The notes: generated from the letters alone by a model not told the origin. DNA of 64,000 nt from Cenarchaeum sp. (GCA_965242695.1 CBDESU010000001.1:1792001-1856000); one strand, 5' to 3'; positions 17,325-63,229 are shown, counted from the first letter of the stretch. Numbers and translations: made by a program.

Positions 17325-19295
17325 ATGCTCGGCAGCCAGTGGGCCTTTGTGTTCAGCCTGTTCTACGACCTTGAAGAGGCCGGCGCCCGCCTGGACCCGC
17401 TCATCCGAAGGTACCTCCCGATCGCCATCGCAACGTGCCTAGAGCTGTTCTACCGCCAGGTCGGGCAGCGCCTGTTCGATGCGCGCGCCCACATGCACAC
17501 CCCCGTCAACATCAGCATCACGCTCGCCGGCATGGACGAGTTCCGGCGCGTCTTGGGCCTCTTCAAGCATGCTGACCTGTTCTGGCACAACCGCAGGGTC
17601 CAGGGCGTCGACGACATAAAGTCGATCCAGGCCGAGCTCGGCATGGACAGCGTGTTCAAGGGCGACCCAAAGCTGCTCGACGTGTCGCACCAGATGTACG
17701 GCGTGCGCAACGACAACGCGCACGGGGCCGGCGCCAGGTGGTACGACGTGCGCCTGTTCCTGTGGGCGCTGCGCATGCACTTTGAAAAGGTCTTGGCGCA
17801 GCTGCCTCCCCTGCTCGCCGTCTTTTGGCTGATCGGAGCAGGCAGGGCCGACCGGCGCGGCGATCGTGATGCCGCCGTCGGGCTCTACCGCAGGGCGGCC
17901 GAGGAGGCAGACGCCGCGGCCGCGGCCGGCGCCGACCCGTCGGCGTGCCACGTGATCGCCGGCAAGGCGGCAGAGTGGTCGGGCGATCCGGAAGAGGCCG
18001 AATCGCGGTACGGGAAGGCGATTGCGGCAAATTCCGGCAACGCAAACGCGCACGCCGCCATGGGGTGCATGCTAGCGCAGTCCGGCCGCGCGGACGGCGC
18101 GCTCGCCGAGTACGACAGGGCCGTCGAGATCGAGCCCGGCTACGCTAGTGCGCACATGGGCAGGGGTCACGTCCTTGCGCGCCTTGGCCGGGCGGCCGAG
18201 GCGCTTGAAAGCTACCAGAAGGCGGCCGAGGCCGACCCTCTGGATGCAGAGGCGCATATCGCGGCAGGTGCCGTTCACGAGTCGCAGGGGCGGGCGGCGG
18301 AGGCGCTTGAAAGCTACCGGCGGGAGGCGGAGGCGGACCCGGCCGAACCAGAGGCGCACATTGCGGCCGGCCGAGTGCACGAGTCGCAGGGGCGGGCGGC
18401 GGAGGCGCTTGAAAGCTACCGGCGGGCGGCGGAGGCGTATCCAAAGGATGCCGAGGCGCACATTGCGGCAGGGGCCGTTTACGAGTCGCAGGGGCGAGTC
18501 GCCGAGGCGCTCGAGTTCTACCGGAAGGCGGCGGAGGCGTATCCAAAGGATGCCGAGGCGCACATTGCGGCAGGGGCCGTTTACGAGTCGCAGGGGCGAG
18601 TCGCCGAGGCGCTCGAGTTCTACCGGAAGGCGGCGGAGGCGTATCCAAAGGATGCCGAGGCGCACATTGCGGCAGGGGCCGTTTACGAGTCGCAGGGGCG
18701 AGTTGCCGAGGCGCACATTGCGGCAGGGGCCGTTTACGAGTCGCAGGGGCGAGTTGCCGAGGCGCTCGAGTTCTACCGGAAGGCGGCGGAGGCGGATCCA
18801 AAGGATGCCGAGGCGCACATTGCGGCAGGGGCCGTTTACGAGTCGCAGGGGCGAGTTGCCGAGGCGCTCGAGTGCTACCGGAAGGCGACGGAGGCGGATC
18901 CAAAGGATGCCGAGGCGCACATTGCGGCAGGGGCCGTTTACGAGTCGCAGGGGCGAGTTGCCGAGGCGCTCGAGTGCTACCGGAAGGCGACGGAGGCGGA
19001 TCCAAAGGATGCCGAGGCGCACATTGCGGCAGGGGCCGTTTACGAGTCGCAGGGGCGAGTTGCCGAGGCGCTCGAGTGCTACCGGAAGGCGGCGGATGCT
19101 CTCGACAAGAGGCAGGGCGGCGCGGCTGAACCCACGCAAGGCCGAAGAGCCGCGTTTGATCCGGCCGGCGCAAGGGATGCGGCCGGCCTCGCACTGGACC
19201 GGCTGCGCAAAAGGCAGGGCCGGCTCCGCGATGCGGGCGACATGGCAAGGCATATTAGGCACACGCGGAGGGGCCGTAACGATGGAAGGAAATGA
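17325..19295 (+). CDS. HEPN-like RNase domain fused to a long TPR array
   Basis: IAIATCLE helix, RNDNAH (RxxxxH) motif, then more than ten 34-aa TPRs; TTTATATA at ~17252; start uncertain. Confidence 0.82.
   Translation: MLGSQWAFVFSLFYDLEEAGARLDPLIRRYLPIAIATCLELFYRQVGQRLFDARAHMHTPVNISITLAGMDEFRRVLGLFKHADLFWHNRRVQGVDDIKSIQAELGMDSVFKGDPKLLDVSHQMYGVRNDNAHGAGARWYDVRLFLWALRMHFEKVLAQLPPLLAVFWLIGAGRADRRGDRDAAVGLYRRAAEEADAAAAAGADPSACHVIAGKAAEWSGDPEEAESRYGKAIAANSGNANAHAAMGCMLAQSGRADGALAEYDRAVEIEPGYASAHMGRGHVLARLGRAAEALESYQKAAEADPLDAEAHIAAGAVHESQGRAAEALESYRREAEADPAEPEAHIAAGRVHESQGRAAEALESYRRAAEAYPKDAEAHIAAGAVYESQGRVAEALEFYRKAAEAYPKDAEAHIAAGAVYESQGRVAEALEFYRKAAEAYPKDAEAHIAAGAVYESQGRVAEAHIAAGAVYESQGRVAEALEFYRKAAEADPKDAEAHIAAGAVYESQGRVAEALECYRKATEADPKDAEAHIAAGAVYESQGRVAEALECYRKATEADPKDAEAHIAAGAVYESQGRVAEALECYRKAADALDKRQGGAAEPTQGRRAAFDPAGARDAAGLALDRLRKRQGRLRDAGDMARHIRHTRRGRNDGRK
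18190..19100 (+). repeat. 102-bp near-identical tandem units encoding TPRs, with one 51-bp half unit
   Basis: Repeated DPKDAEAHIAAGAVYESQGRVAEALE(F/C)YRKAAEA. Confidence 0.92.
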
Positions 19296-44841: not shown

Positions 44842-45642
44842 CTACCGGAACATGTCCTCGGCGGCGGGGCGCACAAGGGCGGCCGCGCCGTCCCCCGACG
44901 GGCGCCCCTCGCCCGGGCCGACAAGCCCGCGCATGCCGCGGCGCCGCACGACGGCCGCGGGCACCGATGCGGCCTTGCCCTTGACGAGCTCGGCCGCTGC
45001 GCACAGCTCGTCGGCCACCGCGATGGCGGTCACGCGCAGGCCTCGCCCCGACGCGTCGGCGCATCCGGCGTGGTCCCGCACGACGCCGATGCCCGCGGCC
45101 CCGACGGCGCAGTCCGTCTGCCCGATGCGGAACGGCCGCCCGAACGTGTCCGATATTACGACGGCCACGTCGCATCCAGACATCTCGGAGATGCGGCCGC
45201 GCAGCCGCCGGGCCGACCCGTCTGGATCCTCGGGCAGTAGGACGGCGTGGCCGTCGGGCGCGTTGCTCTCGTCGACGCCCGAGTTGGCGCACACCAGCCC
45301 GCCGCGCGTCTCGGTTATGATCGCGCCGCCGGCGCCGCCCATGCGGACTATGCGCCGCGCCTCGGACAGCACGAGCTCGACGACCCTCGGATCCTTGCCG
45401 TACGCCGAGGCCAGGCCGGCGGCCAGCTCGGACGGGGCGACCGACGAGAGGGGCACCGCGCGCCCCTCCTCCTTCGAGACGGCCTTGTGCGAGACGACGA
45501 TCACGTCGCCGTCGGCCAGGGGCGGGCATGCGGACGCGATCATCGCGGCCAGGTCGTCGCCGGGCGCAATCTCGCCGAGGCGCACGGGCGCGACCTCTAG
45601 CGCGCCCGACGGCAGATGCCCGCCCCCCCCTTCCGCGGTCAT
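44842..45642 (-). CDS. cofE: Coenzyme F420-0:L-glutamate ligase
   Basis: GDVIVVSHKAVSKEEG, CANSGVDESN, LLPEDPD, ISDTFGRPFR; ATGA overlap with serB. Confidence 0.93.
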   Translation of the reverse strand: MTAEGGGGHLPSGALEVAPVRLGEIAPGDDLAAMIASACPPLADGDVIVVSHKAVSKEEGRAVPLSSVAPSELAAGLASAYGKDPRVVELVLSEARRIVRMGGAGGAIITETRGGLVCANSGVDESNAPDGHAVLLPEDPDGSARRLRGRISEMSGCDVAVVISDTFGRPFRIGQTDCAVGAAGIGVVRDHAGCADASGRGLRVTAIAVADELCAAAELVKGKAASVPAAVVRRRGMRGLVGPGEGRPSGDGAAALVRPAAEDMFR

Positions 45643-46289
45643 GCCGCCCCAGGGTCCCCGAGGCGCATGCCGTAGTGCCTGCCGATGATGCCGAGTATCT
45701 TTGAGAGATCCTTTTCGTCGAGTATCTCGTCGGCCATGTCCTTTACGCGGTCCTGCGCGCGGAACGCGATCCCCAGGCCGCAGATGTCGAACAGCTTCAG
45801 GTCGTTGGCCCCGTCGACGACTACGGCAATCTCCTCCCTTTGCTGCCCCCACTCGGTGATCTTCGACATGGCCGGCAGGGCCTTGTCGGCGCCGACGCTG
45901 ACCCGCACGCCGTCGAGCAGGCCGTCGCGGAAGAGCAGCTCGTTCGAGAAGACGTGGTCTAGCCCGAGCGCATCGCGCAGGCGGTCCGTCATTATCGTAA
46001 AGCCGCCCGAGACGGCCATGGTCCGAAAGCCGGCCGCCTTTAGGGCGCGGCACGCCTCCTCCGCGCCCGTCATAATCGGCAGGTCGTCGGCGACGCGGCG
46101 GCACGTGTCGTAGTCGATGCCGCGGAGGGCATCGACCCTCGTGCGCAGCCCCTCCTCCCAGTCTATGAGGCCCTGTATGCCCTTGCGCGTAATGTCCCAG
46201 ATCTCTTTTTCCTTTCCGAGCTTTTCTGCTAGCAGCGGCAGGTACTCGGCGTCGAACAGGACGCCCTCGACGTCGAAAATGACGAGCAA
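45639..46289 (-). CDS. serB: Phosphoserine phosphatase (HAD family)
   Basis: FDVEGVL, VSGGF, DGANDL, GLGIAF. Confidence 0.85.
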   Translation of the reverse strand: MLVIFDVEGVLFDAEYLPLLAEKLGKEKEIWDITRKGIQGLIDWEEGLRTRVDALRGIDYDTCRRVADDLPIMTGAEEACRALKAAGFRTMAVSGGFTIMTDRLRDALGLDHVFSNELLFRDGLLDGVRVSVGADKALPAMSKITEWGQQREEIAVVVDGANDLKLFDICGLGIAFRAQDRVKDMADEILDEKDLSKILGIIGRHYGMRLGDPGAA

Positions 46290-46470
46290 CTTTGTGCGCG
46301 CGGCCGGCCGTAATTATTTTAACGTTGGGCACATGCGGCCCCGCGGCGGCGGCGCAGGGGCGGGCCTGGGAGGGGCGGGTCGGCAGGGCGGCTGCGGCGC
46401 AGGCGGCCGCGGGCAAGAGGGCCCCGTCAAACATAGGTAGTGTTAAATCGGCCGCGGGGGGCGGCGCGGC

Positions 46471-49400
46471 GTGGACGGCTACGTGCCAGATGCGGGCGAT
46501 GCCGAGCCCGGCTCCCAGGTGCGCGGAGGCGACGGGTCCCGCACGGACGGCGGCGGAGGCGACGGGTCCCGCACGGACGGCGGCGGAGGCGACGGGTCCC
46601 GCACGGACGGCGGCGGAGGCGACGGGTCCCGCACGGACGGCGGCGGAGGCGACGGGTCCCGCACGGACGGCGGCGGAGGCGACGGGGTCGTAGCGGCGGC
46701 AGTAGAGGCATCCATGGCGGCCGTAATCGGGCCCGGCGAGGAGGGTGCGGAGGGAGACGCGCCGCCGCCCCTGTCCGAGTCGGCCGCTGCCGCGGCGGCG
46801 GCCGCCGCGGCGGCGTCGATGCAGCCGGCCGGCATCGATGACGACGGCCACGAGACCCTCGCCGCCCCGAGCGTGCCCGGCTCTCCACCCGTTCCGACCG
46901 ACGGCGAGTTGCAGTACCGGTACGAGGTAAAGGTCCACACGTCGGACAAGCGGCTGAAGATACCAGAGTCGGTAAAGGCCGACCTGAGGGAGTCTGAGAT
47001 GATGGACAAGGACGGCAAGATCAAGGTCAAGGGTGTAAGCCCGAGGATGCTCAAGAGGATGAAGCGCGAGTACGTGAACTGCCCGATCCTCGGCGACGGC
47101 GTCCACTTCATCAGGTGCTTTGTGTGCAAGAACTTTCAGAGCAGGGTGAGCGGAATGGTGCTCTGCGAGGGCGTCGAGTCGAAGGCCGGCCGCTGGGAGC
47201 CCGACGCAAAGCCGCCCGAGTCCGAGCGGAAGGATCGCGGCGAAGGGGGAGCCGCGGAACCGCCTGGCGGAGAGGGCGGGGACGATGCCAAGGGTCCGGC
47301 GCCGCCCGGCAGGATGGAAGAGGCCGACAGGGCCGCAAGGGCCGCGGTCGAGAGGGCCGAGGCGGCCGAGCGCAAGGCCGCGGCCAGGGCCGAGGCGGCC
47401 GAGCGCAAGGCCGCGGCCAGGGCCGAGGCGGCCGAGCGCAAGGCCGCGGCCAGGGCCGAGGCGGCCGAGCGCAAGGCCGCGGCCAGGGCCGAGGCGGCCG
47501 ACAGGGCCGCAAGGGCCGCGGTCGAGAGGGCCGAGGCGGCCGAGCGCAAGGCCGCGGCCAGGGCCGAGGCGGCCGAGCGCAAGGCCGCGGCCAGGGCCGA
47601 GGCGGCCGAGCGCAAGGCCGCGGCCAGGGCCGAGGCGGCCGACAGGGCCGCATCGGCGAGGATTGCCGCGTCCGAGAAGAGGGCCAGGGATGCAGACGAC
47701 AAGCGCGCCGCGTCCGAGAAGAGGGCCAGGGATGCAGACGACAAGCGCGCCGCGTCCGAGAAGAGGGCCAGGGATGCAGACGACAAGCGCGCCGCGTCCG
47801 AGAAGAGGGCAAAGGAGGCCGTGTCGGGGGCAGATGCCGCATCCAGGGAGGCCGGCGCCAGGGAGGCCGCTGCCAAAGAGTCGCTTGAAAGGGCCGAAGG
47901 GCTGGAAAGGAGCGCCGCAGAGAGGGCGGCGGTGGCAGAGGAGCGCCTTGAAAAGGCCGTCTCGGCCGAGTCGACGGCCGAGGACGTGATCAACAAGGCG
48001 GGCGAGAGGGCCGAGGAGGCGAAAAGCATCGCGAGTGCCGCGATAGACAGGGCGGCCGAGTCGAACAGGATGGCAGAGGAGGCGCTCACCAGGGCGGCCG
48101 AGTCCGAGAGGGTCGCCAAGGCGGCCGAGGCGAGGGCGGCCGAGTCGGACAGGATGGCAGAGGATCGCACGGCGGCTGCCGAGAAGGTCGCCAAGGCGGC
48201 AGTCCAGAAGGCGGCGATGGACGAGAGCCGCGCTGTGGGCAGAAAGACGGCGGCCGAAAAGGCCGCCAAGGCCTCCGAGGCCAGGGCGGCAAAGGCGGCC
48301 AATGCGGCAAAGGCCGCGGAGGCAAAGGCGGCAAAGGCGGCCGAGGGCGCCAAGGCGTCGGCGGCAAGGGAGAGGGCCGCAAAGGCCGCGGAGGCAAAGG
48401 CGGCAAAGGCGCTGGCCGCCAAGGAGAGGGCCGCAAAGGCCGCGGAGGCAAAGGCGGCAAAGGCGCTGGCCGCCAAGGAGAGGGCCGCAAAGGCCGCGGA
48501 GGCAAAGGCGGCAAAGGCGCTGGCCGCCAAGGAGAGGGCCGCAAAGGCCGCGGAGGCAAAGGCGGCAAAGGCGCTGGCCGCCAAGGAGAGGGCCGCAAAG
48601 GCCGCGGAGGCAAAGGCCGAAAGGTCCACAAGGGCCGCGGAGGCAAAGGCGGCAAAGGCGGCCGAGGCTACAAGGGCCGCGGAGGCAAAGGCGGCAAAGG
48701 CGGCCGAGGGCGCCAAGGCGTCGGCGGCAAGGGAGAGGGCCGCAAAGGCCGCGGAGGCAAAGGCGGCAAAGGCGCTGGCCGCCAAGGAGAGGGCCGCAAA
48801 GGCCGCGGAGGCAAAGGCGGCAAAGGCGCTGGCCGCCAAGGAGAGGGCCGCAAAGGCCGCGGAGGCAAAGGCGGCAAAGGCGCTGGCCGCCAAGGAGAGG
48901 GCCGCAAAGGCCGCGGAGGCAAAGGCCGAAAGGTCCACAAGGGCCGCGGAGGCAAAGGCGGCAAAGGCGGCCGAGGCTACAAGGGCCGCGGAGGCAAAGG
49001 CGGCAAAGGCGGCCGAGGGCGCCAAGGCGTCGGTGGCAAATGAGAGGGCCGCAAAGGCCGCGGAGGCAAAGGCGGCAAAGGCGCTGGCCGCCAAGGAGAG
49101 GGCCGCAAAGGCCGCGGAGGCAAAGGCGGCAAAGGCGCTGGCCGCCAAGGAGAGGGCCGCAAAGGCCGCGGAGGCAAAGGCGGCAGGAGTATCCAAGGCG
49201 ACAAGGGTCAAGAAGACGGCGGCGGATCGTGCGGGCGCCGCAGAGGCTGAAGATGCGGCCGGCGGCGGGACCAAGCCGGCTCGGCAGGCCCAGGCTACCG
49301 GGAGCAGGCGCCGGCCAAGGCAGAGGGCGGCGGTTCGCGCAGGGGCCGAGGAGTCGGCGGCCGGGCAGCAGCAGGCGGCGGAAGGCGGCGAGCCGGCCGC

Positions 49401-49893
49401 TGCCGGGCAGGACGATCCGGCGGCGGCCGCCCCCGCCGCCAAGAGGAAGGGCAGGCGCCGGCCAAGGCAGAGGGCGGCGGTTCGCGCCGAGGCAGGGGCA
49501 GGATCCGAGGAGTCGGCGGCCGGGCAGGAGGCGTCGACGGGGGCTACAGGGCAAGAGGGTCCGGCGGCCGCCCCCGCCGCCAAGAGGAAGGGCAGGCGCC
49601 GGCCAAGGCAGAGGGCGGCGGTTCGCGCCGAGGCAGGGGCAGGATCCGAGGAGTCGGCGGCCGGGCAGGAGGTGGAAGGCGGCGAGCCGGCGGCCGAGGC
49701 TACTACAGGGCAGGTGGGTCCGGCGGCCGCCCCCGCCGCCAAGAGGAAGGGCAGGCGCCGGCCGAGGCAGAGGGCGGCGGTTCGCGCCGAGGCAGGGCAG
49801 CATCAGGAACAGCGGCAGGCGTCGGAAGGCGGCGAGCCGGCGGAGTCGTCCGGACAGGATGCGCCCGCCGCCGCGGACAGGCCCGACGCTTAG
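46471..49893 (+). CDS. Cys-rich domain fused to a very long Ala/Lys/Glu-rich repetitive helical region
   Basis: Globular part ...EYVNCPIL..CFVCKNFQSRV..VLCEG; repeats AEAAERKAAAR and AKERAAKAAEAKAAKALA; basic KRKGRRRPRQR repeats. Confidence 0.8.
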   Translation: MDGYVPDAGDAEPGSQVRGGDGSRTDGGGGDGSRTDGGGGDGSRTDGGGGDGSRTDGGGGDGSRTDGGGGDGVVAAAVEASMAAVIGPGEEGAEGDAPPPLSESAAAAAAAAAAASMQPAGIDDDGHETLAAPSVPGSPPVPTDGELQYRYEVKVHTSDKRLKIPESVKADLRESEMMDKDGKIKVKGVSPRMLKRMKREYVNCPILGDGVHFIRCFVCKNFQSRVSGMVLCEGVESKAGRWEPDAKPPESERKDRGEGGAAEPPGGEGGDDAKGPAPPGRMEEADRAARAAVERAEAAERKAAARAEAAERKAAARAEAAERKAAARAEAAERKAAARAEAADRAARAAVERAEAAERKAAARAEAAERKAAARAEAAERKAAARAEAADRAASARIAASEKRARDADDKRAASEKRARDADDKRAASEKRARDADDKRAASEKRAKEAVSGADAASREAGAREAAAKESLERAEGLERSAAERAAVAEERLEKAVSAESTAEDVINKAGERAEEAKSIASAAIDRAAESNRMAEEALTRAAESERVAKAAEARAAESDRMAEDRTAAAEKVAKAAVQKAAMDESRAVGRKTAAEKAAKASEARAAKAANAAKAAEAKAAKAAEGAKASAARERAAKAAEAKAAKALAAKERAAKAAEAKAAKALAAKERAAKAAEAKAAKALAAKERAAKAAEAKAAKALAAKERAAKAAEAKAERSTRAAEAKAAKAAEATRAAEAKAAKAAEGAKASAARERAAKAAEAKAAKALAAKERAAKAAEAKAAKALAAKERAAKAAEAKAAKALAAKERAAKAAEAKAERSTRAAEAKAAKAAEATRAAEAKAAKAAEGAKASVANERAAKAAEAKAAKALAAKERAAKAAEAKAAKALAAKERAAKAAEAKAAGVSKATRVKKTAADRAGAAEAEDAAGGGTKPARQAQATGSRRRPRQRAAVRAGAEESAAGQQQAAEGGEPAAAGQDDPAAAAPAAKRKGRRRPRQRAAVRAEAGAGSEESAAGQEASTGATGQEGPAAAPAAKRKGRRRPRQRAAVRAEAGAGSEESAAGQEVEGGEPAAEATTGQVGPAAAPAAKRKGRRRPRQRAAVRAEAGQHQEQRQASEGGEPAESSGQDAPAAADRPDA
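46523..46686 (+). repeat. 30-bp tandem repeat, 5 copies (GDGSRTDGGG)
   Basis: GACGGGTCCCGCACGGACGGCGGCGGAGGC repeated exactly. Confidence 0.92.
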
Positions 49894-50040
49894 CGGCCCG
49901 CGCAACTAGCAGGCACCGCGGCGTTGGCGGACACTGGCCCAATATTCTTCCGAACCGCCCTGCGCGCGGGCGGCCCCGGAGGCGCGGCCGCGCAGGGCGC
50001 GGCAAAGGCTCATTAGGAAAAAACTTCACGGCCCCGGCGA

Positions 50041-52960: not shown

Positions 52961-54316
52961 TTGGGCCGCCGCAGAATCGTCAGCATAACGCCGGCGCTGG
53001 CCGGCCAAGACATGGCCGCAATCCTTACCGACTTCTTTTCCGTCGTGCTCCTGCTCGCATTGAACAAAAAGTACGCACGCAGGGCCGTGGCCGTCACCCT
53101 CGTATCCGCCCTTGAGCAGTACTGCAGGATGGTCGTGGCCGAGATGCTGGCGCGCGGAAGGGGGCCGCTGCCGGACTATGTCGAGATGCCGCTTGCCGAC
53201 GCGGGCCGCATCGCATCCCTGCCCAAGGAGGTACTCGCCTCGTTCGCGCACAGCTTTCAGAGCGTGGAGGCGATCAGGAGGATGCCCGCGACTTCGGGCT
53301 GTGGGACGTGGTCAAGAACGATCCGACCCTGCTCGACGACCTTGCCGCGCTGTTCGCCGCCCGCAACGACTTTGTCCACACGTCCGTGCCGGTAAACTTC
53401 GACATGCAGGCTGCGTATGATGCGGTCCTCCGGCTCTTCATCGGGATCGCGCGTCTGGTTCCGGGGCTTGAGGCAGAGATCCGCCTCGTGCAGGGCGACG
53501 TATTCAAGGAGATGCGGATGCACGATCGCTCGCGCGGGGGTACGAAGAGGCCGTCCGGCTCTACGATGCGATCGTGCGCGCCGATCCCCGCAATGCAAAG
53601 GCGCATGCGCAGATGGGGCTGGCGCTTGCGGGCTTGGGCCGCTACGAGGAGGCGGTCGCAAGCTACGACAGGGCCGAGTCCATGGATGCAGGCCGCGCCG
53701 CCGCGCACCTTGGCAGGGGCCAGTCGCTTGCAATGATGGGCCGCTACGAGGAGGCGGTCGCAAGCTACGACAGGGCCATAGTACTCGATGCCGCCCTCGT
53801 CGATGCGTATCTCCTGCGGATGATCGCCCTTGCCGACGCCGGGCGCCGCGAGGAGGCCCTTGCCGCCTGCGAGAGGGTCGCATCCCTCGACGACCCGCCG
53901 CCGCGCGCGCACACATGCTCCGCGGAAAGACGCTTGCAAGGATGGGCCGCCGCGAGGAGGCGCTTGCGGCGTACGACAAGTCCATATCCATGGACGGGTA
54001 CGACGAAGCCGCGCACCTGCATCGGGCAGACCTGCTGGCCGAGGCGGGCCGCCGCGAGGAGGCGCTTGCGGCGTACGACGCGGCGATCGAGCTGGATCCG
54101 CAGTATGCAGAGGCGCATCTGAAGAAGGCCGACCTGCTCTACGACATGGACGAGTACGACGAATCCATATGCTCCTACAACAGGGCGATTCGCCTCGCAC
54201 CTGGCAGCGCCGGCGCGCTTGCCGGCAAGGGCCGCGTCCTTGAGCGCCTTGGCCGCGTCGACGATGCCGCAGAATACTGCGGGGCGGCGCACGGCCTGAA
54301 CCCTGCGCGCTACTAG
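52961..54316 (+). pseudogene. HEPN-TPR paralog split by three frameshifts
   Basis: TLVSALEQY, SFQSVEAI, RNDFVH, then TPRs; frames join at ~53288, ~53538 and ~53895; TTTATA at 52931. Confidence 0.78.
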
Positions 54317-54424
54317 TCCCTAGCGGTTCGCACTGCTACCGAGGCCCGCGCGGCTGCAGATGTGCATTCGTCACGCCAAGCGGAAGTGGCAGCACCGCCT
54401 GTTGTGTCCCCGGGGCGCTCCCTG

Positions 54425-54619
54425 CTAGTAGAGTCTCTCGAGCAGCTCCTTTGTCATGCGCTCATCGCTGTGCCTGCGGGACATCGCGAGGTACTCTTCC
54501 TTGGACATGGCGGTCATGCGCTTGTATAGCGCCCACCCCTCGGGCGAGACCTCGCCCTTGAGACTGTCCGGCACGCCGCCGTCCTCTTCAGCCTTGACAG
54601 CCTCATCTCCCCTGTCCAT
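54425..54619 (-). CDS. Small charged helical protein (64 aa)
   Basis: TTTATA about 25 bp upstream of ATG; convergent with the HEPN-TPR locus. Confidence 0.6.
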   Translation of the reverse strand: MDRGDEAVKAEEDGGVPDSLKGEVSPEGWALYKRMTAMSKEEYLAMSRRHSDERMTKELLERLY

Positions 54620-54928
54620 ACAGGGACGGCACGAGCCGTTCCTATAAAGACAACGGAGGGCGGCAAGTCCGGGCCCGGTACGAGGCTATGCCCGCCCCGC
54701 TACTAATACCGGGCGCCCGCCGCCCCTCTCGCGCCGGCGCACATGCGTGGTGTGGGCCTGCAGGCAGAGCCGCGCCCCCGCCCTCCCTGCCGTCGCGTAT
54801 GCGGATCGATATCCACCAGACTGCGATCTGTCTCCGGCGCACGGGCGCACGGCAGGGGTTTGCGCGCCTGCATCATTTGCCTGGTCGGGCCGCCGCCCGG
54901 GCACCGCCAATATCGGGCGGCGCTCCTA

Positions 54929-55909
54929 CTACGGGGGCGGCGGCTCTGGTGCCGGTTCGGGCTCGGGCGCCGCAGCTGCGGGCGGGCCGGATGCCGCATC
55001 CGCATCTCCGCCGGCCTCGACGTCCAATTCATCATCGTCGCCGCCCAGTTCGATCTCGACCGACGAGGTCAGTACGGCGACGACCAGCAGTATTCCGACT
55101 AGCGCGGCCACTCCGGCCAGGACGGCCCGCCGGCTGCCGCCTCCGCCCTCGGCGCGCATGCCGCCTCCGGGCGGCGCCCGGCGCGAGCCGCGTCCCCCTC
55201 CCGGCGCGGCCGTGGCCGCGGCGCGCCTCTTCTCGATGTCGGGCGGCACCGAAGAGGCCGCATACTCTGCAGAGTCGGCCGAGGCGCGCGCGTTTCCCAC
55301 GTCGAACAAGAGCACGCCGCACCTCATGCAAAAGTTGGCCTTGAGCAGGTTCTTCTTGCCGCACTTCCAGCAGTGTATGACGGCCGGGCCGGCCGAGCCC
55401 CAGTCCATGCCGGCCCCAAAGTCCTCGGCATCGCTGGCGGCCGACTCGGGCGAGCCCGGCGGGGCCGGGGCGGTGGGAGGCGCCGGGTCGGGGGCCGCCG
55501 TCGGGTCTGGGACGGCATCGCTGGCGGCGGCGGCGGCGGCGGGCCCGGCGGGACGTAGATCGGCGCGGGGGGAAGGCGGGGGCGCATCAGGGGCGGGCGG
55601 GGCCTCGGCCGGCCGGCCCGCCGCGCCGCCGGGAGCCGCATCGGCGGCGGCCATCACGTCGCGGTCGTCGTCGACGGGCTCGCCCCGGCGCAGGTCGTCG
55701 ATGTACTTTTCCCTCATCCGCTCCAGGTACCTCCTGTCGCTCTCCCAGATGTTGCGGTTCTCTACGTACGCGAGCTTTATGTGCTCTAGGCGGTACTGGT
55801 CCCCGACGCCCAGGCGGAGCAGCGCGTTGATCTCGTCGATTATGTCGGGCGCGGCCCCTGCCCGGCCGCGCTCTCCGCCCGCCACGCCGGCCCGCCCAGG
55901 CCGGCCCAA
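54929..55909 (-). CDS. Zinc-ribbon membrane protein
   Basis: N-domain GVGDQYRLEHIK, CWKC..NFCMRCG ribbon, single TM helix, acidic tail; start uncertain. Confidence 0.75.
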   Translation of the reverse strand: MGRPGRAGVAGGERGRAGAAPDIIDEINALLRLGVGDQYRLEHIKLAYVENRNIWESDRRYLERMREKYIDDLRRGEPVDDDRDVMAAADAAPGGAAGRPAEAPPAPDAPPPSPRADLRPAGPAAAAAASDAVPDPTAAPDPAPPTAPAPPGSPESAASDAEDFGAGMDWGSAGPAVIHCWKCGKKNLLKANFCMRCGVLLFDVGNARASADSAEYAASSVPPDIEKRRAAATAAPGGGRGSRRAPPGGGMRAEGGGGSRRAVLAGVAALVGILLVVAVLTSSVEIELGGDDDELDVEAGGDADAASGPPAAAAPEPEPAPEPPPP

Positions 55910-56161
55910 ATATCAGTTTCGCCGCGCCATGCCGGCCCGAGACCGGGGGCAGCGCGGGCCAAGCGCCGTCCCTGCAGGCTCGATGAGGAGGGGGCGCGGC
56001 GCGGCGCGGCAGGCCCCAAGAGGACGGGGCAATGTGCGAATCCATCCTAGGCAGCACGGCGCATGCGGGAGGCGCGAGGCCGGGCATGCGCCGCCGGACG
56101 GACCCGGGAAGAGGCGGCCGCGCGCGCCATGCCTATAAGCGGACGGCGCGGCGGCGCGCCG

Positions 56162-56878
56162 TTGATCCACATTGCGATCCACTTCACCACTGGCCAGTAC
56201 AGCGCAAGGCCGTGGGGCGTGAAAGAGGGATACGATCGCCACGAATGGCCCCCGTCGCCGTACAGGATTGTGCGGGCTACCGCAGCCGCATGGAAGTACA
56301 ACCTGCCGGACATCGCAGAGGACCGCTTCTACGCGGTCGTCCGGCGCCTGGCATCCGAGCTCCCGGTGTTCGGCCTGCCGAGGGCAGGGCGCATGGCAGG
56401 CGGCGGCGAAGGCGGGAGCGGGCGGCCCGCGCCGTGGCGGATCGACCCCGGCCAGGCCGTCCACATAGTCTGGCCGAGCGCCGCCCTTGCCGGCGGCGAG
56501 CGGCGCACGCTGTCGGACATCCTCGCCCATGTGCACTACCTGGGGCGGACCGAGTCGTGGTGCGAGATGCGGCTTGGCGGCGGCGGCCTCAACGGCGGAG
56601 TGCAGGACCATGGGATTGACAGCGGCGGTTGCGATCAGGCGGCGTCGCCGCCGTGCCGCATCAACTGCCGCCCGTACGATCACGAAAAAAGCCCGGGCCG
56701 CCGCGTCGTGCCCGCGCGCGTGATCGTCCCGAGGCCCGACATAACCATGGAGGACGTGTACAGGAAGGAGTTCCCGTCCGACAAGGAGGCCGCAACGGCG
56801 TGCCCCGACGGCGGAACGGCCGTGCCGTACCTGATCGACCGCGAGGCGGCCGGGCCGCGCCCTGCCGGCGAAGGGTAG
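56162..56878 (+). CDS. csb2: Orphan truncated type I-G (I-U) Csb2-like protein, Cas5-like RAMP domain only
   Basis: IAIHFTTGQYSARPWG...HEWPPSPYRIVRA...VWP...YLGRTESWC are Csb2 N-terminal signatures; CTATAAG about 25 bp upstream of TTG. Confidence 0.78.
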   Translation: MIHIAIHFTTGQYSARPWGVKEGYDRHEWPPSPYRIVRATAAAWKYNLPDIAEDRFYAVVRRLASELPVFGLPRAGRMAGGGEGGSGRPAPWRIDPGQAVHIVWPSAALAGGERRTLSDILAHVHYLGRTESWCEMRLGGGGLNGGVQDHGIDSGGCDQAASPPCRINCRPYDHEKSPGRRVVPARVIVPRPDITMEDVYRKEFPSDKEAATACPDGGTAVPYLIDREAAGPRPAGEG

Positions 56879-56908
56879 CGGCGCCGGCTCCAGCGGCCCG
56901 GGGGCGCG

Positions 56909-59900
56909 TCACTTTGCGGCCGGCGCCGTCGCCGCGGGGGCCGCCGGCACGCCGCGCCGGTTGTACCTGACGACGTGCGAGGCGCCGCCGGCCTTTGGGA
57001 ACACGCCGTACACCTGGTCTGCCTTTGAGATGAGCAGGTCCTTGTGCGAGACCATTATGAACTGGCTCGACTCGGACCTCTTCTTGAGTATGTCCGCGAG
57101 CCGCTGGGCGTTCGGGCCGTCGAGGCTCGCGTCGATCTCGTCGAATATGTAGAACGGCGACGGGCGCAGCTGCTGCAGCGCGAGCGCAAAGACGACGGCG
57201 GCGAGCGTCTTTTCGCCCCCGCTCGTCGACGTCGACTCGCGCTTGGCCTTGCCCGGGAACTGGAGCATGTACAGCACCCCCGAGCTGAATATGTCGTCCT
57301 CGTTCTCGAGCTCGAGCCACGCGTTGCCGCCGTCCATCATTCCCGAGAACGCGATGCGTATCTCCTTGTCGACCTTGTCGAACGCGTCAAGGAACGTCTG
57401 GCGCTTGTCCTTTTCGACGGACTCTATGAACTCTACGATCTTGTTGCGCTCGGCCTCTAGCTCGTTCCTGCGCGTCGACATGCTGCGGTACCCGTCCGAG
57501 ACCCGGGCGTACGACTCGGGCGCCTTTGCGTTCAGGTCGCCGAGCGAGCGCAGCTCGGCCTCTAGGTCGCGCACCGTCTGCAGCGCATCGCCTCCCCGGC
57601 CGCCCCCTCCCAGCTCCGCAGCCTCGGCCTCGGCGGCCGCGGCGGCCTCGCCGAACCCCGCGCGCTCGAGGACTGCTCGCAGGCGCACCTCCTCGGCGTC
57701 GAGGCCCTCCAGGTCGCGCCGCACAGAGTCCGACGAGCGCTCGGCCGTGCTGATCACGCGCGTCAGATCCTTGTCGCGGCCGTTCAGGTCGGACAGGGCC
57801 CCGTCGTAGTCCTTGATCGTAGAGGCCCACGCGCCGCCGCTCTCGATGACCTCCTGCTCGCGCTCGCGCAGCCCGTCAAGGCGCCGCCTCGCCCCGGCCC
57901 GCTCCTCAGCAAGCCCGCCGATCCTCGACTCGTGGCCGGCCCGCTCCGACGAGGCGGCCGCCTCGGCCCCGCGCAGCGCCTCGGCGTTGCGCCTGCCGGC
58001 CGTTGCCTCGGCCTCCAGGTCGGCGGCTCTCTTTGACGCCGCGGCGTACGCGTCGACCGCGTCCGTGCGCGCCTTTTCGGCACCCACGCGCACCGCATCG
58101 GCCGCATCGAGGTCGGACGCTATCGCATCCAGGTCGGCGCCGCCGTCGGCGGCCAGGGCCGCCTCGGACGCCTCGGACTCGAGCGAGGCCGCGGCCGACT
58201 CGTGCCGCTCGGCGTCGGCGATCAGGCCGGCCCGCTCGGCGGCGAGCTCCTCGAGGCGCCCGGCGAGGCGGCCTAGGGTCGAGCCGCGCTGGCCCGTCTG
58301 CCACTCGAGGTCCTCGAGGCCGCGGTCCGCATCGGCTAGCATGTCGCGCGAGACGTCGCGGCGCTCGGCCTGCCGCTCGATGTCGGCGTCGAGCCGGCGC
58401 AGGTCGGCCTTTTTCCTTTCCATGTGACGGCGCAGCAGGCCGATCGAGCGCAGCAGGCCGTCGACGGACGTGCTCATCGATATGATCTTTGTCAGCTTTG
58501 ATATGCGCGAGTTCACGTCGACTACGACGGCGGCCGCGTTGGACTCGAAGAACTCGCCGTCGACGGACACGGCGCGGTAGCCCCTCCTGGACAGGGCGTA
58601 CGCGTCGTCCTTTGTCCTCGCCACGACGATGCTGCCGAACAGGAACGACTTTAGGCGGGCGTGCCCCGGCCCGCACCTGACAAGGTCCGACAGGACGCCG
58701 ACCACGCCGGGCCCCTCCGGTGCGTCCATCGACACGTCTGGGAGCGCGTCGAGCGGTATTATCTTGAGCTTTGGGAGGCGCCGGTCGCGCACGTACTCGG
58801 CCAGCCCGACGAGCGTCGCAAAGTCGCGCACGACCGTCGCCTTGAGCCAGTCCGAGGCGGCCGCCAGGACGGCCCTCTCGTGCTCCCTGTCCCACTCGAT
58901 CAGCTCGTACGCGAGCCCGATCACCCCGAGCTTGCCGGCGTTGTCGCGCAGCCTTGCCGCCGAGTAGTCCTCGTGCATAATGTCCTTGACGAGCTTTATC
59001 TTGGCGTCGAACTTTGATCCGGCGCTAGTCGACTTGTCGAGCAGCAGCGACAGGTCGTCCATGTCCCGGACGGTCCGCTCGCGCCTGCCCTTGAGCCCCG
59101 ATATCCTGCCGTCGACCGTCTCGACCGAGGCGGCGTGGTTTGCGCGCACGGCCTCTAGGCGCCTGCGCAGGCCGAGCAGCTTTGCATGCTGCTCGCGGTA
59201 CGCGCCGTGCCTCTTGGCGTTCTCGCCCTCCTTGGCCTCGACGTCGGCGAGGCGCGCGCGGGCCCTCGAGGCGCCGAGGCGCGCCTCGCCGAGACGCCCG
59301 GCGATCTCGCTTGCCCTCTTGTCGGCCTCGGACTTTGCGCGAAGCGCATCGGACTGCCTTGCGAGCACGGCATCCCGCCTTGTGTTCGCCTCGGAGGCGC
59401 GCCCGTCGGCATCCGTCCTCGCCGACTCGGCGGCGGCAAGGTCGGCCGCCGCCGCGGCCGACTGCTCGGCCGCCGCCGCGGCCGACTGCTCGGCATCGGC
59501 GAGCTCGGAGCGCATGCGCGGCAGGCCCTCGTCGATGCGTTCGACGGCCCTGCGGGCCGCCGACAGGCGCGCATCGGACTCTTCGAACGCCCGCACGGCC
59601 TCGCTAAGCTCGGACTCTACAATGGCCTTTTTCCTGTTGTACTCGTCTACCTGGCCCATAAAGTCGGCCTTTTGCGCCTCGATCTCGCCTATCCGCCCCC
59701 GGACGGTGTCGCGCTCGTCGCGCGCCCTCCCCATGCGGGCCGCAAGGTCGTCGTCCTCGGCCGCCTTGGCGTCGCGCTCCGAGGCGATCTCGGCGAGGCG
59801 CCTCGACGCCGTGATCGCCTGGAGTCGGCGAATCTCCGAGTGGAGCATGTCGTGGCGGAGCTTCAGGTTGCGCTCCTCGTCGAGCTCGTCGATCTGCTTC

Positions 59901-60508
59901 TTTATCTCGTCCATCTTGGCTAGGGCCACCTCGAGCCGGCGGTCCGCATCGTCGAGCTCCTTGAGGGCCTTTTCCTTGCGCTCGTCGAACTCGGACAGGC
60001 CGATCAGGTCCTCTATGGACTTGCGCTTTTCCTCCGGCGTAAAGTCCGAGATGCGCGTTATCGTGTTCTGCTGGACGGCGTTGAGCTGGTGGAGGCGGGC
60101 GCTGGCCACGTCGAGCAGGTCGACGACGCTGCCGCGCGGCGTCCTCTTCTTGTTCAGGTAGTAGGCCGAGTCGCCGTTGGCATCGAGCTCGCGCGATATC
60201 TCGACGAGGTCCGAGTCTACGGGTATGCGCCTGTCCGCGTTGTCGAGGTGCACGCTGACGCGGGCCGGGTGCTTGCCGCGCCCCGACCCCTCCCCGTCGG
60301 GATCGTACAGGAGCTGGCCCATCCGGCCGACCCGCATCGTCCTCGGCTTGTTCTCGCCGGTGGCGAACGTGATCGCGTCGAGTATGTTGCTCTTTCCCGA
60401 CCCGTTGGCCCCCGCCAGCGATATCAGGCCCGGCTGGAAGTCGATGACCGTGTTCTTGTACCCGAACGACTTGAATCCGAATATCTCGACCTTGCGGATG
60501 TAGACCAC
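56909..60508 (-). CDS. smc: Chromosome segregation protein SMC
   Basis: GFKSF, Walker A GANGSGKSN, coiled coils, hinge, SGGEK, FDEIDASLD; GTG at 60508. Confidence 0.95.
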   Translation of the reverse strand: MVYIRKVEIFGFKSFGYKNTVIDFQPGLISLAGANGSGKSNILDAITFATGENKPRTMRVGRMGQLLYDPDGEGSGRGKHPARVSVHLDNADRRIPVDSDLVEISRELDANGDSAYYLNKKRTPRGSVVDLLDVASARLHQLNAVQQNTITRISDFTPEEKRKSIEDLIGLSEFDERKEKALKELDDADRRLEVALAKMDEIKKQIDELDEERNLKLRHDMLHSEIRRLQAITASRRLAEIASERDAKAAEDDDLAARMGRARDERDTVRGRIGEIEAQKADFMGQVDEYNRKKAIVESELSEAVRAFEESDARLSAARRAVERIDEGLPRMRSELADAEQSAAAAAEQSAAAAADLAAAESARTDADGRASEANTRRDAVLARQSDALRAKSEADKRASEIAGRLGEARLGASRARARLADVEAKEGENAKRHGAYREQHAKLLGLRRRLEAVRANHAASVETVDGRISGLKGRRERTVRDMDDLSLLLDKSTSAGSKFDAKIKLVKDIMHEDYSAARLRDNAGKLGVIGLAYELIEWDREHERAVLAAASDWLKATVVRDFATLVGLAEYVRDRRLPKLKIIPLDALPDVSMDAPEGPGVVGVLSDLVRCGPGHARLKSFLFGSIVVARTKDDAYALSRRGYRAVSVDGEFFESNAAAVVVDVNSRISKLTKIISMSTSVDGLLRSIGLLRRHMERKKADLRRLDADIERQAERRDVSRDMLADADRGLEDLEWQTGQRGSTLGRLAGRLEELAAERAGLIADAERHESAAASLESEASEAALAADGGADLDAIASDLDAADAVRVGAEKARTDAVDAYAAASKRAADLEAEATAGRRNAEALRGAEAAASSERAGHESRIGGLAEERAGARRRLDGLREREQEVIESGGAWASTIKDYDGALSDLNGRDKDLTRVISTAERSSDSVRRDLEGLDAEEVRLRAVLERAGFGEAAAAAEAEAAELGGGGRGGDALQTVRDLEAELRSLGDLNAKAPESYARVSDGYRSMSTRRNELEAERNKIVEFIESVEKDKRQTFLDAFDKVDKEIRIAFSGMMDGGNAWLELENEDDIFSSGVLYMLQFPGKAKRESTSTSGGEKTLAAVVFALALQQLRPSPFYIFDEIDASLDGPNAQRLADILKKRSESSQFIMVSHKDLLISKADQVYGVFPKAGGASHVVRYNRRGVPAAPAATAPAAK

Positions 60509-60722
60509 GATCGTGCCGCCCCAGCCTGCGTAATTAACGCTTGCGATCGCCAAAGATGCGGCGGGCGGGGCTGGCGGGGGAGGCGGGCGGCCGCGGCCCG
60601 GGGGAGCCGCGGCCTCGCATGCCCCTCCCGGCGCCGCCGCCGGCCAGAGGCGGGCACGCTCATCGCCGCGATCGCCCCACGGCGGGGCGCCCGGCGGGGC
60701 GCCCGGCGGCGGCCGCGGGCCC

Positions 60723-61781
60723 TCAGCGCCGGCCCACCTCGCATGCGAACAGGCGCTCGGCATGCCCGCCGTACGGGTCTGTCCTGCCGGCGGCAAACTC
60801 CCTGTGCCCCGTCTCGTGCACCCTCACCCGCCCGCGCCTCCCAAGGATCCTTGCGATCTCCGCGTCGCTGATGCGCGAGTTCGAGCGGACGTCCCGCCTG
60901 TCCGACGTGTTGTTGTACGACAGGAATATGTACCGGCAGTCGGCGTGCATGACCAGGTCCTCGAGGGCCGCGGCCGCATCCCGCAGGCAGTAGCGGCTCT
61001 TGAGGTGGCTTCGGTCCATCTTCTGGGCCTTGCCGCGCGTCTCTGGCTTTTTCCAGGCCGCGGCATTCTCGAGAAGGTGGTACGCATCGCAGTACTGGCG
61101 CGAGTTGTAGGGGGGATCCAGGTACAGGACGTCGACGCTCTCCCTGCGGACCAGGTCGTTGGCATCCATGTTGCAGACCAGGTTTCCGGCGTTGGCGCCG
61201 CCCTCCCCGGGGCAGGGCGCCAGCAGTTCGAGGGGCCGGGCCCGGCCCATCCGGCCCCGGTACGCGTCGTAGTGGCCCACGGTGTTTGCCAGTCGGTCCA
61301 TGGCGTAGAGCAGCGAGCATATCAGCGCGCACCTTTCGCCCTCGCCGGATGCGATCGCCTCGATCTCGTCCCGCACGGCGCCGATCTTTCGCGCCGTCTC
61401 CACGGTGAAGAACGTGCCGCCGTACCGCCTTGAAAAGTAGTTGTCGCCGCCGGCCGGCAGGGCGTTGAGGCGCCGTATCGACTCGGAGAGCCTCCCGCGG
61501 CTCGCCCCGCCGTCGGCCAGGAACGTGCGCAGCGCCACGTAGTTGCTGAACAGGAGGTCGTTGGACACGATGCGCGTGTGCCCGTCGTTGAGCGCCTGCG
61601 AGACGGCGCCCGTCCCCGCAAAGGGATCGCACACGGAGCCAAAGCGTCCGCACGTCTCGGCGATCACGCCGCGGATGAACCCCGTGATCCTCGCCTTGCA
61701 CCCCATGTAGCGGCGGCTCTTGAGCTCAAAGCAGCGCGGCGCGGGGGCGTCGCACTCCCAGAGGCCCTCGGCGGGGGTCAT
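60723..61781 (-). CDS. DNA adenine methyltransferase (D12 / Dam-like), orphan
   Basis: RRYMGCK, DPFAGTG (motif I), YLDPPYN (motif IV), FLSYN. Confidence 0.9.
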   Translation of the reverse strand: MTPAEGLWECDAPAPRCFELKSRRYMGCKARITGFIRGVIAETCGRFGSVCDPFAGTGAVSQALNDGHTRIVSNDLLFSNYVALRTFLADGGASRGRLSESIRRLNALPAGGDNYFSRRYGGTFFTVETARKIGAVRDEIEAIASGEGERCALICSLLYAMDRLANTVGHYDAYRGRMGRARPLELLAPCPGEGGANAGNLVCNMDANDLVRRESVDVLYLDPPYNSRQYCDAYHLLENAAAWKKPETRGKAQKMDRSHLKSRYCLRDAAAALEDLVMHADCRYIFLSYNNTSDRRDVRSNSRISDAEIARILGRRGRVRVHETGHREFAAGRTDPYGGHAERLFACEVGRR

Positions 61782-62086
61782 CGGGGCGGCCTCCGCGGGG
61801 CGCCGCGGCCGCGGCGCGCGGCGCACTCCGATGCTCCGCGGGCTCCCGCAAGGGCGCGGCCGCGGCGCGCGGCGCGCGGGCGGGCAGGCGCGGCTGGCAT
61901 CCCCGCGGGCCGCGGCGCGCAGCCCCCCGCCCGCATGCGCGCGCGGGCGGGCAGCCGGCGCGCCGTCCCGAGCAGGGCCATGCCCGGCGCGGAGCGCCCC
62001 GATGTTAAAGCGTATTCGGGGGCCGCCTGCGCGCCGGTTCCGACCGGGATTCCACGAGCCGCGCACGCGAGTCTTGGGACGGCCCG

Positions 62087-63229
62087 CTATTCCGGCCGGC
62101 GCCCCTGCCGCCCCTCGACGAAATCCTCGCACGCCCTCTTTGCATCAGGATCGCTCATCTGCTCGGGCGGGTGCTTCATGAGGTACGCGCTGGCCGGGAC
62201 TATGGGGCCCCCAACGCCGTCGTCTAGCGCTATCCGGGCAAGGCGCACCGCGTCGATGACGATGCCGGCCGAGTTTGCCTTGTCGTCGACGTCCAGGCGC
62301 ACCTCCATGTTGTACGGCACGTTGGCCCACTGCCTGCCCTCTATCCTCATGAACATCAGCTTCGTGTTGCCCAGGAACGGGACAAAGTCTGACGGGCCCA
62401 CGTATATCTGGTCGTCCTCGAGCCTCTCGGAGAGCTGGCTCTGCACGCTCTCGGTCTTTGATATGCGCTTGCTGGCCAGGCGCTCCTGCTCCTTCATGTT
62501 CAGAAAGTCCGTGTTGCCGCCGACGTTGATCTGGTAGGTCCTCTCTATGCGGGTGCCCCGCTCGCTGCACAGGCGCGCGAGCGTCCGGTGCACGATCGTC
62601 GCGCCCACCTGGCCCTTTATGTCGTCGCCTACGACGGGTATCCCCTTCTCGGCGAACCGGCCGGCCCACCCGGGATCCGACGCTATGAACGACGGTATGC
62701 AGTTGACAAAGGCGGCGCCCGTGTCCAGGCAGACCTGCGCCCAGAAGCGCGTCGCCTCGTCCGAGCCGACAGGGAGGTACGAGACGATGATCTCGGCGCC
62801 CGTCTCGCGCACCACCCTGCGCACGTCCTCGGCCAGCTCCTCGTCCGTCCTGGTCTGCCTCACCGGATTCACCTTGTTCTGCACCCATATGCCGACGCCG
62901 TCTAGCTGCGGCGCCTCGTGGACCAGCGCGCCGGTCTTGGGCATCTGCTCGCGCGGCACCCAGTCGACCATGTTCGGCGACTCGTAGATGGCCTCGTTGA
63001 CCTCCTTGCCGACCTTGTTCTCGCCGACGTCGAACCCGCACACAAAGTCGATGTCGTGTATGGTGTAGCCGCGTAGCCGCTCGTGGATGATCCCGATCAC
63101 CGACTGCGACGGGTTCCTGCGGTAGTACTCTATCCCCTGTATGAGGCCCGAGAAGCAGTTGCCGACGCCGACCAGTCCGACCCTGATCCTCTCGCCGCGG
63201 CCCCCGCCTTGCCCGTCCCCGCCCGACAC
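62087..63229 (-). CDS. ino1: myo-inositol-1-phosphate synthase
   Basis: GVGNC, SYLPVGS, GDDIKGQVGATI, GGNTDFLNM, NSAG; TTTAAA upstream of GTG. Confidence 0.95.
   Translation of the reverse strand: MSGGDGQGGGRGERIRVGLVGVGNCFSGLIQGIEYYRRNPSQSVIGIIHERLRGYTIHDIDFVCGFDVGENKVGKEVNEAIYESPNMVDWVPREQMPKTGALVHEAPQLDGVGIWVQNKVNPVRQTRTDEELAEDVRRVVRETGAEIIVSYLPVGSDEATRFWAQVCLDTGAAFVNCIPSFIASDPGWAGRFAEKGIPVVGDDIKGQVGATIVHRTLARLCSERGTRIERTYQINVGGNTDFLNMKEQERLASKRISKTESVQSQLSERLEDDQIYVGPSDFVPFLGNTKLMFMRIEGRQWANVPYNMEVRLDVDDKANSAGIVIDAVRLARIALDDGVGGPIVPASAYLMKHPPEQMSDPDAKRACEDFVEGRQGRRPE

Follow-up and report, generated by a model that had tools for sequence, protein, structure and literature searches.

Csb2 of the type I-G CRISPR-Cas systems joins an N-terminal Cas5-like domain to a Cas6 domain. 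The sole structural study of type I-G that we found concerns a bacterial system (PMC9638904), and its accessible text reports that the Cas6 domain binds and cuts the repeat hairpin, that complex formation requires the Cas5-like domain, and that this domain in isolation bound none of the RNAs tested. Canonical Cas5 binds the 5′ handle of the CRISPR RNA (crRNA) as well as Cas8, whereas the Csb2 N-domain in that study did not bind the 5′ handle; Csb2 was not visible in the map, in which, unlike canonical type I complexes, the 5′ end carries no Cas5, and the role of the Cas5-like domain is stated there as unresolved. A Cas5 homologue away from cas loci is represented by AcrIB3 of Listeria, which, according to the accessible part of the preprint (bioRxiv 10.1101/2023.06.24.545427), is carried on mobile elements, forms a clade of its own and acts as a faulty Cascade subunit. 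Here we describe a gene of Cenarchaeum sp., hereafter short csb2, which encodes the Cas5-like half of Csb2 only and lies in a stretch of 64,000 nucleotides (the window; C1:1792001-1856000 in G000, a two-contig assembly of 3.89 Mb), from the start of which positions are counted. On the sequence evidence, its product falls within a paralogue family, old and separate, which is part of the type I-G systems of its archaeal family. With a natural, conserved stand-alone version beside full-length Csb2, the role of the Cas5-like domain would become directly accessible to study.

Gene structure, profile matches and predicted fold

The short csb2 gene and its parts in the window are as follows.

56162..56878, + strand: coding sequence of short csb2, Cas5-like part only (238 amino acids from TTG 56162), based on open reading frame (ORF), translation and Csb2 profile matches
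56132..56139, + strand: TATA-box-like element CCTATAAG, with TATAA at 56134-56138, 26 nt 5′ of TTG 56162
56162..56575, + strand: N-terminal half (residues 12-149), RNA recognition motif-like, with the GxYxAxPWG, EWPPSPxR, WKYNLP and YLGRTESW motifs
56393..56434, + strand: Gly-rich variable loop (residues 89-102) between two short strands
56576..56650, + strand: second Gly-rich variable linker (residues 150-174)
56651..56848, + strand: C-terminal subdomain (residues 175-240), with the NCRP, VIVPRPDxTMEDVY and CPDG..PY motifs, which completes the predicted Cas5-like fold

An alternative in-frame ATG at 56129 would give a protein of 249 amino acids (P0001), the residue numbering of which is followed here. 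The original prediction had recognized the gene by three Csb2 motifs in an intact plus-strand frame of 238 codons, and both points were confirmed: the frame, counted from TTG 56162, has 238 codons and ends at 56878, and P0001 contains G22-Q-Y-S-A-R-P-W-G30, E39-WPPSPYR46 and Y137-LGRTESW144. The G+C contents at the three codon positions (0.69, 0.56 and 0.86, respectively) are as for a real gene in a genome of 70% G+C. Profile searches agreed with the assignment to Csb2, since the protein scored 48 bits with NCBIfam TIGR02165 (type I-G Csb2, equivalog; cut-off 45 bits, E 1e-12) and 97.1 bits with the PADLOC Cas56g model PDLC01778 (E 4.4e-28). The matches were limited to about positions 1-150 of the 431-492 positions of the profiles, i.e., the N-terminal third, and relatives of the short form matched positions 1-214 of 449 in PDLC01778. 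With no match past profile position 150 or so and the protein ending at residue 249, the Cas6-like half is absent, as had been claimed; a search of the genome with a hidden Markov model of the Cas6 domain found nothing at the site of the short gene. Searches with the short protein returned no Pfam family at E values up to 10 and no sequence of a solved structure by profile search.

The AlphaFold (AF2) model, built on 27 family sequences, had a mean predicted local distance difference test (pLDDT) value of 79.3 and a predicted template modelling score of 0.79, with low confidence only at residues 1-8, 92-95, 153-174 and 245-249. The N-terminal half, to which the Csb2 profiles match and which holds most of the 31 invariant columns of the family alignment, was modelled with pLDDT mostly of 84-96. 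The loop at residues 89-102, which had been regarded as a replacement of the "thumb" region, fell below 50 at residues 92-95 and differs in length and sequence across the family, and the linker at residues 150-174 fell below 50 at residues 153-174 and is gapped out in the shorter members of the alignment. In the C-terminal subdomain pLDDT was 84-93; counterparts of its motifs precede the Cas6 part in the full-length Csb2 of L021, a Nitrosopumilus sp. metagenome-assembled genome.

A Foldseek search of the PDB with the model gave as top matches chains of type I-A Cascade and an Archaeoglobus CRISPR protein (E 9e-5 to 6e-4, template modelling scores 0.33-0.41). In a structure search independent of Foldseek, model residues 10-249 were aligned, in Cascade entries, with chains 195-240 residues long, the alignments reaching model residues 239-249. 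The best match was 7r21_P (Z 10.1, root mean square deviation 4.3, 180 aligned residues), followed by 4mjk_B (Z 9.1), 4n77_A (8.2), 5u07_N (8.1), 8fcj_A (7.8), 4qyz_J (7.2) and 8dex_A (6.4); best Z values of 7-8 are common in this search even for unrelated models, and weight was therefore placed on the top rows together with sequence homology. By their size and entries, we take the aligned chains (7r21_P, 4mjk_B, 5u07_N, 4qyz_J and others) to be Cas5 subunits. The short protein is thus similar in size to canonical Cas5 of types I-A, I-B, I-C and I-E, and its fold aligns with them over the whole model (Z 6.4-10.1), but it is only 8-16% identical to them in sequence. Because the alignment of the model extends over the full length of chains the size of Cas5, the short protein is predicted to be a domain-complete Cas5-like module that ends at the linker before the Cas6 domain, and not the product of a broken gene. 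The label "truncated" given to it originally is therefore right as to the missing Cas6 part and misleading as to the rest, because a whole Cas5-like fold appears to be present. In the Csb2 studied previously, the domain boundary lies at R260 and each domain folds independently, as reported in the accessible text (PMC9638904).

A TATA box belonging to the gene had also been proposed, and the TATAA found 26 nt before TTG 56162 agrees with it; this pentamer is rare, with 13 occurrences in 128 kb (both strands of the window). In G004, one of four further genomes of the same genus (G001-G004), the orthologue has the identical ATG-CCTATAAGC...CCG TTG ATC arrangement, TATA element included. The G002 orthologue is without the upstream ATG and has a GTG start at the aligned position, with an A-rich box at equal distance, and relatives located in cas loci of G306 and G390 have a TTG ATC start at the aligned position. 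Strain contigs from four sequencing runs showed no differences in the TATA box; in one of these runs (X4), the stretch upstream of the gene is replaced and homology picks up again at 56122. On the basis of the TATA spacing and the start position shared by G004, G002, G306 and G390, TTG 56162 is the likely start of a leaderless transcript, driven by the putative promoter. A sigma-70 promoter scan, which is not relevant to archaea, found nothing.

Relatives of the short protein and type I-G systems

A 90%-clustered protein collection contained 26 relatives of 173-281 amino acids with 37-96% identity, and an alignment of 27 sequences (A1) had 31 invariant columns. The search for longer homologues yielded a single Csb2 of 496 amino acids with 28% identity. 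When the family profile was run against 1.84 billion representatives, 1396 proteins were matched at E up to 1e-3; the top six (at least 192.8 bits) were all 205-282 amino acids long, and the next one (164.9 bits) had 483. Several matches of 256-329 amino acids extend into sequence of the Cas6 domain, so that they resemble full-length proteins that were cut. In metagenomes, a protein-pattern scan gave 26 matched stretches with no relative among them, and a DNA scan with the degenerate pattern RA..A.WKYNLP gave three loci, none of which was a relative. Short clusters annotated as "Cas5/Cas6 family" (173-264 amino acids, from bacteria) were seen in the ESM Atlas; they are leads only and may be fragments.

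A tree was constructed from 48 rows, of which 20 were short forms (P0001 itself, 14 out of the 26 relatives from the database, and five from loci) and 28 were N-domains of full-length Csb2, 16 from the archaeal family of the window and 12 selected from more than 60 of other phyla. Left out were 12 close or partial short forms, as well as the Csb2 proteins of G000 and G004, which were too divergent to align. All 20 short rows were placed on one side of a branch with 100/100 support, separate from the 28 full-length N-domains. Three short forms located in cas loci and their three full-length partners had the same branching order. The G002 copy had a long end branch (2.28) and its exact placement is unsure. 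The tree is unrooted, and derivation of the short form from a full-length gene is not readable from it. P0001 has all the features that delimit the short family (about 200-280 amino acids, a match to the N-domain only, WKYNLP, and placement in the short clade).

The family profile matched in 18 of 401 genomes from the archaeal family of the window, and seven of the 18 had a short ORF (G000, G002, G004, G051, G306, G318 and G390). With the short-family profile, most short forms scored 193-377 bits and the divergent copy of G002 scored 130.4, against at most 163 for full-length proteins. In four genomes the short gene lies in cas loci, co-oriented with the type I-G cas genes in all four: 1) in L021 the order is cas1, array, short gene (216 amino acids), a gap of 64 nt, cas3g, cas8g/csx17, cas7g and full-length csb2; 2) in G390 the short gene directly follows csb2; 3) in G306, 2 kb separate it from the preceding csb2; and 4) in G051, cas4-cas1 follows it after 110 nt. 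All seven genomes with the short gene carry cas genes, and six carry a full-length Csb2 above the TIGR02165 cut-off, the exception being G051, a draft of 150 contigs, in which none was found.

Outside these assignments, a 237-amino-acid ORF of G306 without PADLOC match (L108 11373-12086, + strand) ends 10 nt before the short csb2 of that locus and could be a partner gene. In G390, a solo Cas6-like gene (L115 7874-8590, - strand) encodes 238 amino acids that match residues 238-477 of Csb2 from G318 at 39% identity; this gene ends a second type I-G locus of G390, in the order cas7-csb2-cas3-(331-amino-acid ORF)-solo Cas6.

The original prediction had placed the gene outside any CRISPR context. 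This holds for the 64-kb window, in which we found neither a CRISPR-like array nor another cas homologue, so that the short gene is not part of an operon with cas3g, cas8g and cas7g here; it does not hold for the genome, in which both a type I-G locus and an array had been suggested as things to look for and both were found, as listed below.

About C1:1049200-1055700: type I-G locus A, encoding Cas7g (400 amino acids), Csb2 (470), Cas3g (953) and a small Cas8g (328)
About C1:1065900-1072400: type I-G locus B, encoding Cas3g (868 amino acids), a Csb3-like Cas8g (245), Cas7g (354) and a long Csb2 ORF
C1:1072688-1096405: single CRISPR array of 330 repeats, 23.7 kb
C1:1096925-1098658: cas4-cas1 fusion

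Of the five genomes of the genus, G000, G002 and G004 combine the short gene with a full-length Csb2 and the array repeat, and in G001 and G003 none of the three is found. The repeat start GCTTCAATGGGGCCGCAAC has 330 copies in G000, 529 in G002 and 254 in G004, making these arrays very large for such archaea.

The Csb2 ORF of locus B (C1:1065868-1068306; L009 5868-8306, - strand) is itself unusual. It has 812 amino acids, with the Cas5-Cas6 part at residues 118-559, and its first 117 residues may be a false extension. Residues 564-799 form a second Cas6-like domain, 30% identical to the Cas6 domain of the Nitrosopumilus-type Csb2, which is closer than for any other part. A split Csb2, in which the short protein would pair with this extra Cas6-like domain, was considered and does not generalise, because in G004, which has the short gene, no additional Cas6-like stretch came up in the TIGR02165 search. 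Since solo and fused Cas6-like domains exist together with the short Cas5-like gene, both halves of Csb2 occur as extra copies in this archaeal family; the copies in G390 and G000 are of the Cas6 half and lie in cas loci, whereas the short gene is the Cas5-like half and is dispersed.

Compared with Csb2 (TIGR02165/Cas56g), the short protein has the homologous Cas5-like domain with the same hallmark motifs, and its relatives are likewise encoded in type I-G loci. It differs in being about half as long, in lacking the Cas6 domain and with it the crRNA-processing site (catalytic histidine) and the 3′-hairpin tether, in its clade apart from all sampled full-length N-domains, and in coexisting with full-length Csb2 instead of replacing it, in G000 at a place far from the cas genes. 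In open papers and preprints (main texts), we found neither a stand-alone Cas5-like paralogue of Csb2 nor type I-G in Nitrosopumilus.

Possible role of the short protein

Because of the resident type I-G machinery, the relatives within cas loci and the co-occurrence in the genus, we favour, with about even confidence, the view that the short protein, encoded in trans, assists or modulates type I-G Cascade as one of its subunits; its expression, its attachment to Cascade and the direction in which it acts are predicted. A Cascade subunit acting in trans had been one of two options offered originally, and the two type I-G modules with their 330-repeat array, the four genomes with in-locus relatives and the co-occurrence within the genus fit it. 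In such a scheme, the short gene would be transcribed from its own TATA promoter beside smc, and the protein would act in trans on type I-G Cascades encoded some 750-795 kb off. It would dock on the Cas7g backbone or on Cas8g via the surface that the Csb2 N-domain uses for assembly, and may serve there as an extra cap, or as an assembly and modulating subunit. A protein-protein surface should persist in it, because the free copy of the N-domain keeps the hallmark motifs. A more specific version, which we put forward tentatively and consider possible without being probable, is that the short protein is an undescribed fifth effector-associated type I-G protein of ammonia-oxidising archaea, which fills the Cas5 position that is empty in the published type I-G Cascade, or tunes assembly in competition with the Csb2 N-domain, and which has become dispersed and separately transcribed in large-genome sponge symbionts while still serving their arrays of 254-529 repeats. 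The short gene also shows that a gene derived from cas is able to survive at a distance from its locus, where CRISPR typing based on loci would overlook it.

Several observations weigh against a function in Cascade. 1) About 750 kb separate the short gene from cas4-cas1, the nearest cas gene, and 780-795 kb from the two csb2 genes. 2) By BLASTP, the resident Csb2 proteins of G000 share little beyond EWPPSP with the short protein, and the short-family profile finds neither of them at E 1e-3. 3) Identity between the resident Cas7g proteins and Cas7g of loci that contain a short gene is only about 24-25%, which makes the cognate interface uncertain. 4) The carriers in the genus are the large genomes (3.2-3.9 Mb versus 1.8-2.0 Mb) and are kin, and the co-occurrence, seen in five related genomes, therefore carries little statistical weight. 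5) Constraint on the gene is relaxed, with a whole-gene dN/dS (omega) of 0.48 between G000 and G004 (234 codons); omega values are from our own Nei-Gojobori script and are crude pairwise estimates in a genome with extreme G+C at third codon positions. 6) Within cas loci, the short gene changes about twice as fast as csb2, with dN between G390 and G306 of 0.275 for the short gene, 0.13 for csb2, 0.088 for cas7g, 0.18 for cas8g and 0.14 for cas3g. 7) Near-identical strain contigs differ at 12 nonsynonymous and 4 synonymous codons, giving a pN/pS of about 1 from small numbers; many of these changes are A-to-G, resulting in I/V or T/A replacements. The second of these points also led us to reject the idea that the short gene is a recent duplicate of a resident csb2, as little beyond that motif is shared with either copy.

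The relaxed constraint bears on whether the gene is a functionless leftover in slow decay, derived either from a type I-G locus that once existed or from a csb2 duplicate. The whole-gene omega, the strain-level changes and the very divergent G002 copy with its long end branch speak for such a remnant, as does the omega of 1.01 in the two Gly-rich loops plus tail between G000 and G004. However, the folded core (residues 12-83, 101-149 and 175-240) gave an omega of 0.36 in the same comparison, beside 0.25 for smc by the same method, and the in-locus pair G390/G306 gave 0.23 for the short gene, with dS near saturation. The frame is intact in G000, G004, G002 and the 26 database relatives, down to 37% identity, with the 31 invariant columns retained; strain contigs have no indels within the frame in spite of indels just upstream of it and in the 30-bp spacer before smc; and start codon and TATA box are conserved. 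The protein also ends exactly at a domain boundary and its model folds confidently. We therefore consider decay very improbable. Selection, as judged from these codon comparisons, is purifying but relaxed. The original prediction would have been abandoned for lack of a Csb2 profile match, or for a dN/dS near 1 together with absence from relatives; instead, Csb2 profiles match, relatives have the gene, and omega is below 1 in the folded core.

A function opposite in sign is also conceivable, in which the short protein is a brake encoded by the host: the Cas6-less module would compete with the N-domain of full-length Csb2 for the site where that domain docks, so that a defective or down-tuned Cascade results. 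We regard this as unlikely, and equally so its use, by way of example, in limiting self-targeting from the 330-spacer array, in the manner of AcrIB3 but kept by the host. By analogy with AcrIB3, the short protein is a Cas5 homologue away from cas loci whose family forms its own clade; the hallmark motifs of the N-domain are kept in it with the Cas6 domain absent, it evolves faster than the other cas genes, and in G000 a putative promoter of its own drives it at a distance from the cas operons. A Cas6 that is reported to regulate a type I-B system negatively offers a further precedent (PMC12102369). On the other hand, AcrIB3 is borne by mobile elements, whereas the short gene lies between core genes, syntenic in G000 and G004, and has relatives inside cas loci. 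In four genomes these are co-oriented with the cas genes, and in L021 the short gene comes first, 64 nt before cas3g, as would be expected of a system component. Viral contigs and the records of phages and plasmids yielded no relatives of the short protein, and the gene is not carried by a phage, prophage, plasmid or anti-defence cluster, as an AcrIB3-like anti-CRISPR gene would be. The same absence of relatives, with core genes as neighbours, is evidence against an origin of the short gene from a mobile element.

Neighbourhood of the short gene

The gene had been placed between core genes and convergent with smc, and this arrangement was found, with the following neighbours on either side.

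54929..55909, - strand: gene of a zinc-ribbon, Pro-rich protein (Pfam Zn_Ribbon_1), divergent upstream neighbour
56909..60796, - strand: smc (Pfam SMC_N and SMC_hinge), convergent neighbour, 87% identical in G004

The annotated start of the smc ORF is probably too far upstream, because the SMC_N match begins only at residue 99. The wider flanks contain genes of prolyl-tRNA synthetase, tetratricopeptide repeat (TPR) protein, zinc-ribbon protein, smc and inositol-1-phosphate synthase, and the G+C content is even. In G004, an orthologue with 67-69% identity occupies the same site, in the order zinc-ribbon gene, short csb2, convergent smc, methyltransferase and inositol-1-phosphate synthase. In G002, the copy (39-40% identity) lies elsewhere and not beside smc, in a neighbourhood that was uninformative, only one of 12 ORFs having a Pfam match (a polyketide-cyclase-like domain). 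G001 and G003 have smc without the short gene, and in G003 a zinc-ribbon homologue comes about 40 bp after smc with no short csb2 between them. Synteny next to smc, one of the checks proposed for the gene, is thus kept in G004 and not in G002, G001 or G003. Because the G002 copy is elsewhere and G001 and G003 have smc alone, the linkage is lineage-specific, and the position beside smc looks incidental.

The other of the two original options was that the short protein is a domesticated repeat-associated mysterious protein (RAMP) with a non-CRISPR RNA role; more broadly, the place beside smc suggests a function unrelated to CRISPR defence, such as one in the biology of RNA or chromosomes. Its own putative promoter, a site flanked by core genes with every cas gene at least some 750 kb off, the position conserved in G004, and the great divergence of the resident Csb2 and Cas7g from the partners of its relatives are in line with such a role. 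Yet linkage to smc is not general, cas genes are present in each of the seven genomes with the short gene, and an Rfam search of 54000-58000 found no RNA. The isolated Cas5-like domain of Csb2, moreover, bound none of the RNAs tested in vitro, as far as the accessible text of that study goes (PMC9638904). A non-CRISPR role is thus disfavoured and seems quite improbable.

Some minor features of the window were also noted. In G000 and G004, smc is separated from the inositol-1-phosphate synthase gene by a gene for a D12-class N6-adenine DNA methyltransferase (60723-62132, - strand), and none was seen at the corresponding place in G001 and G003. Region 44842-49905 contains very long overlapping ORFs on both strands (1687 and 1140 amino acids) with 24-54-bp coding repeats rich in Ala/Lys/Glu, the minus-strand ORF ending in an F420-0:gamma-glutamyl ligase domain. 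Regions 18192-19096 and 53417-54316 contain 102-bp tandem repeats coding for TPR units and the gene of a further TPR protein, upstream of short csb2, and a perfect 71-bp tandem repeat at 189-366, in 2.5 copies, is not CRISPR-like.

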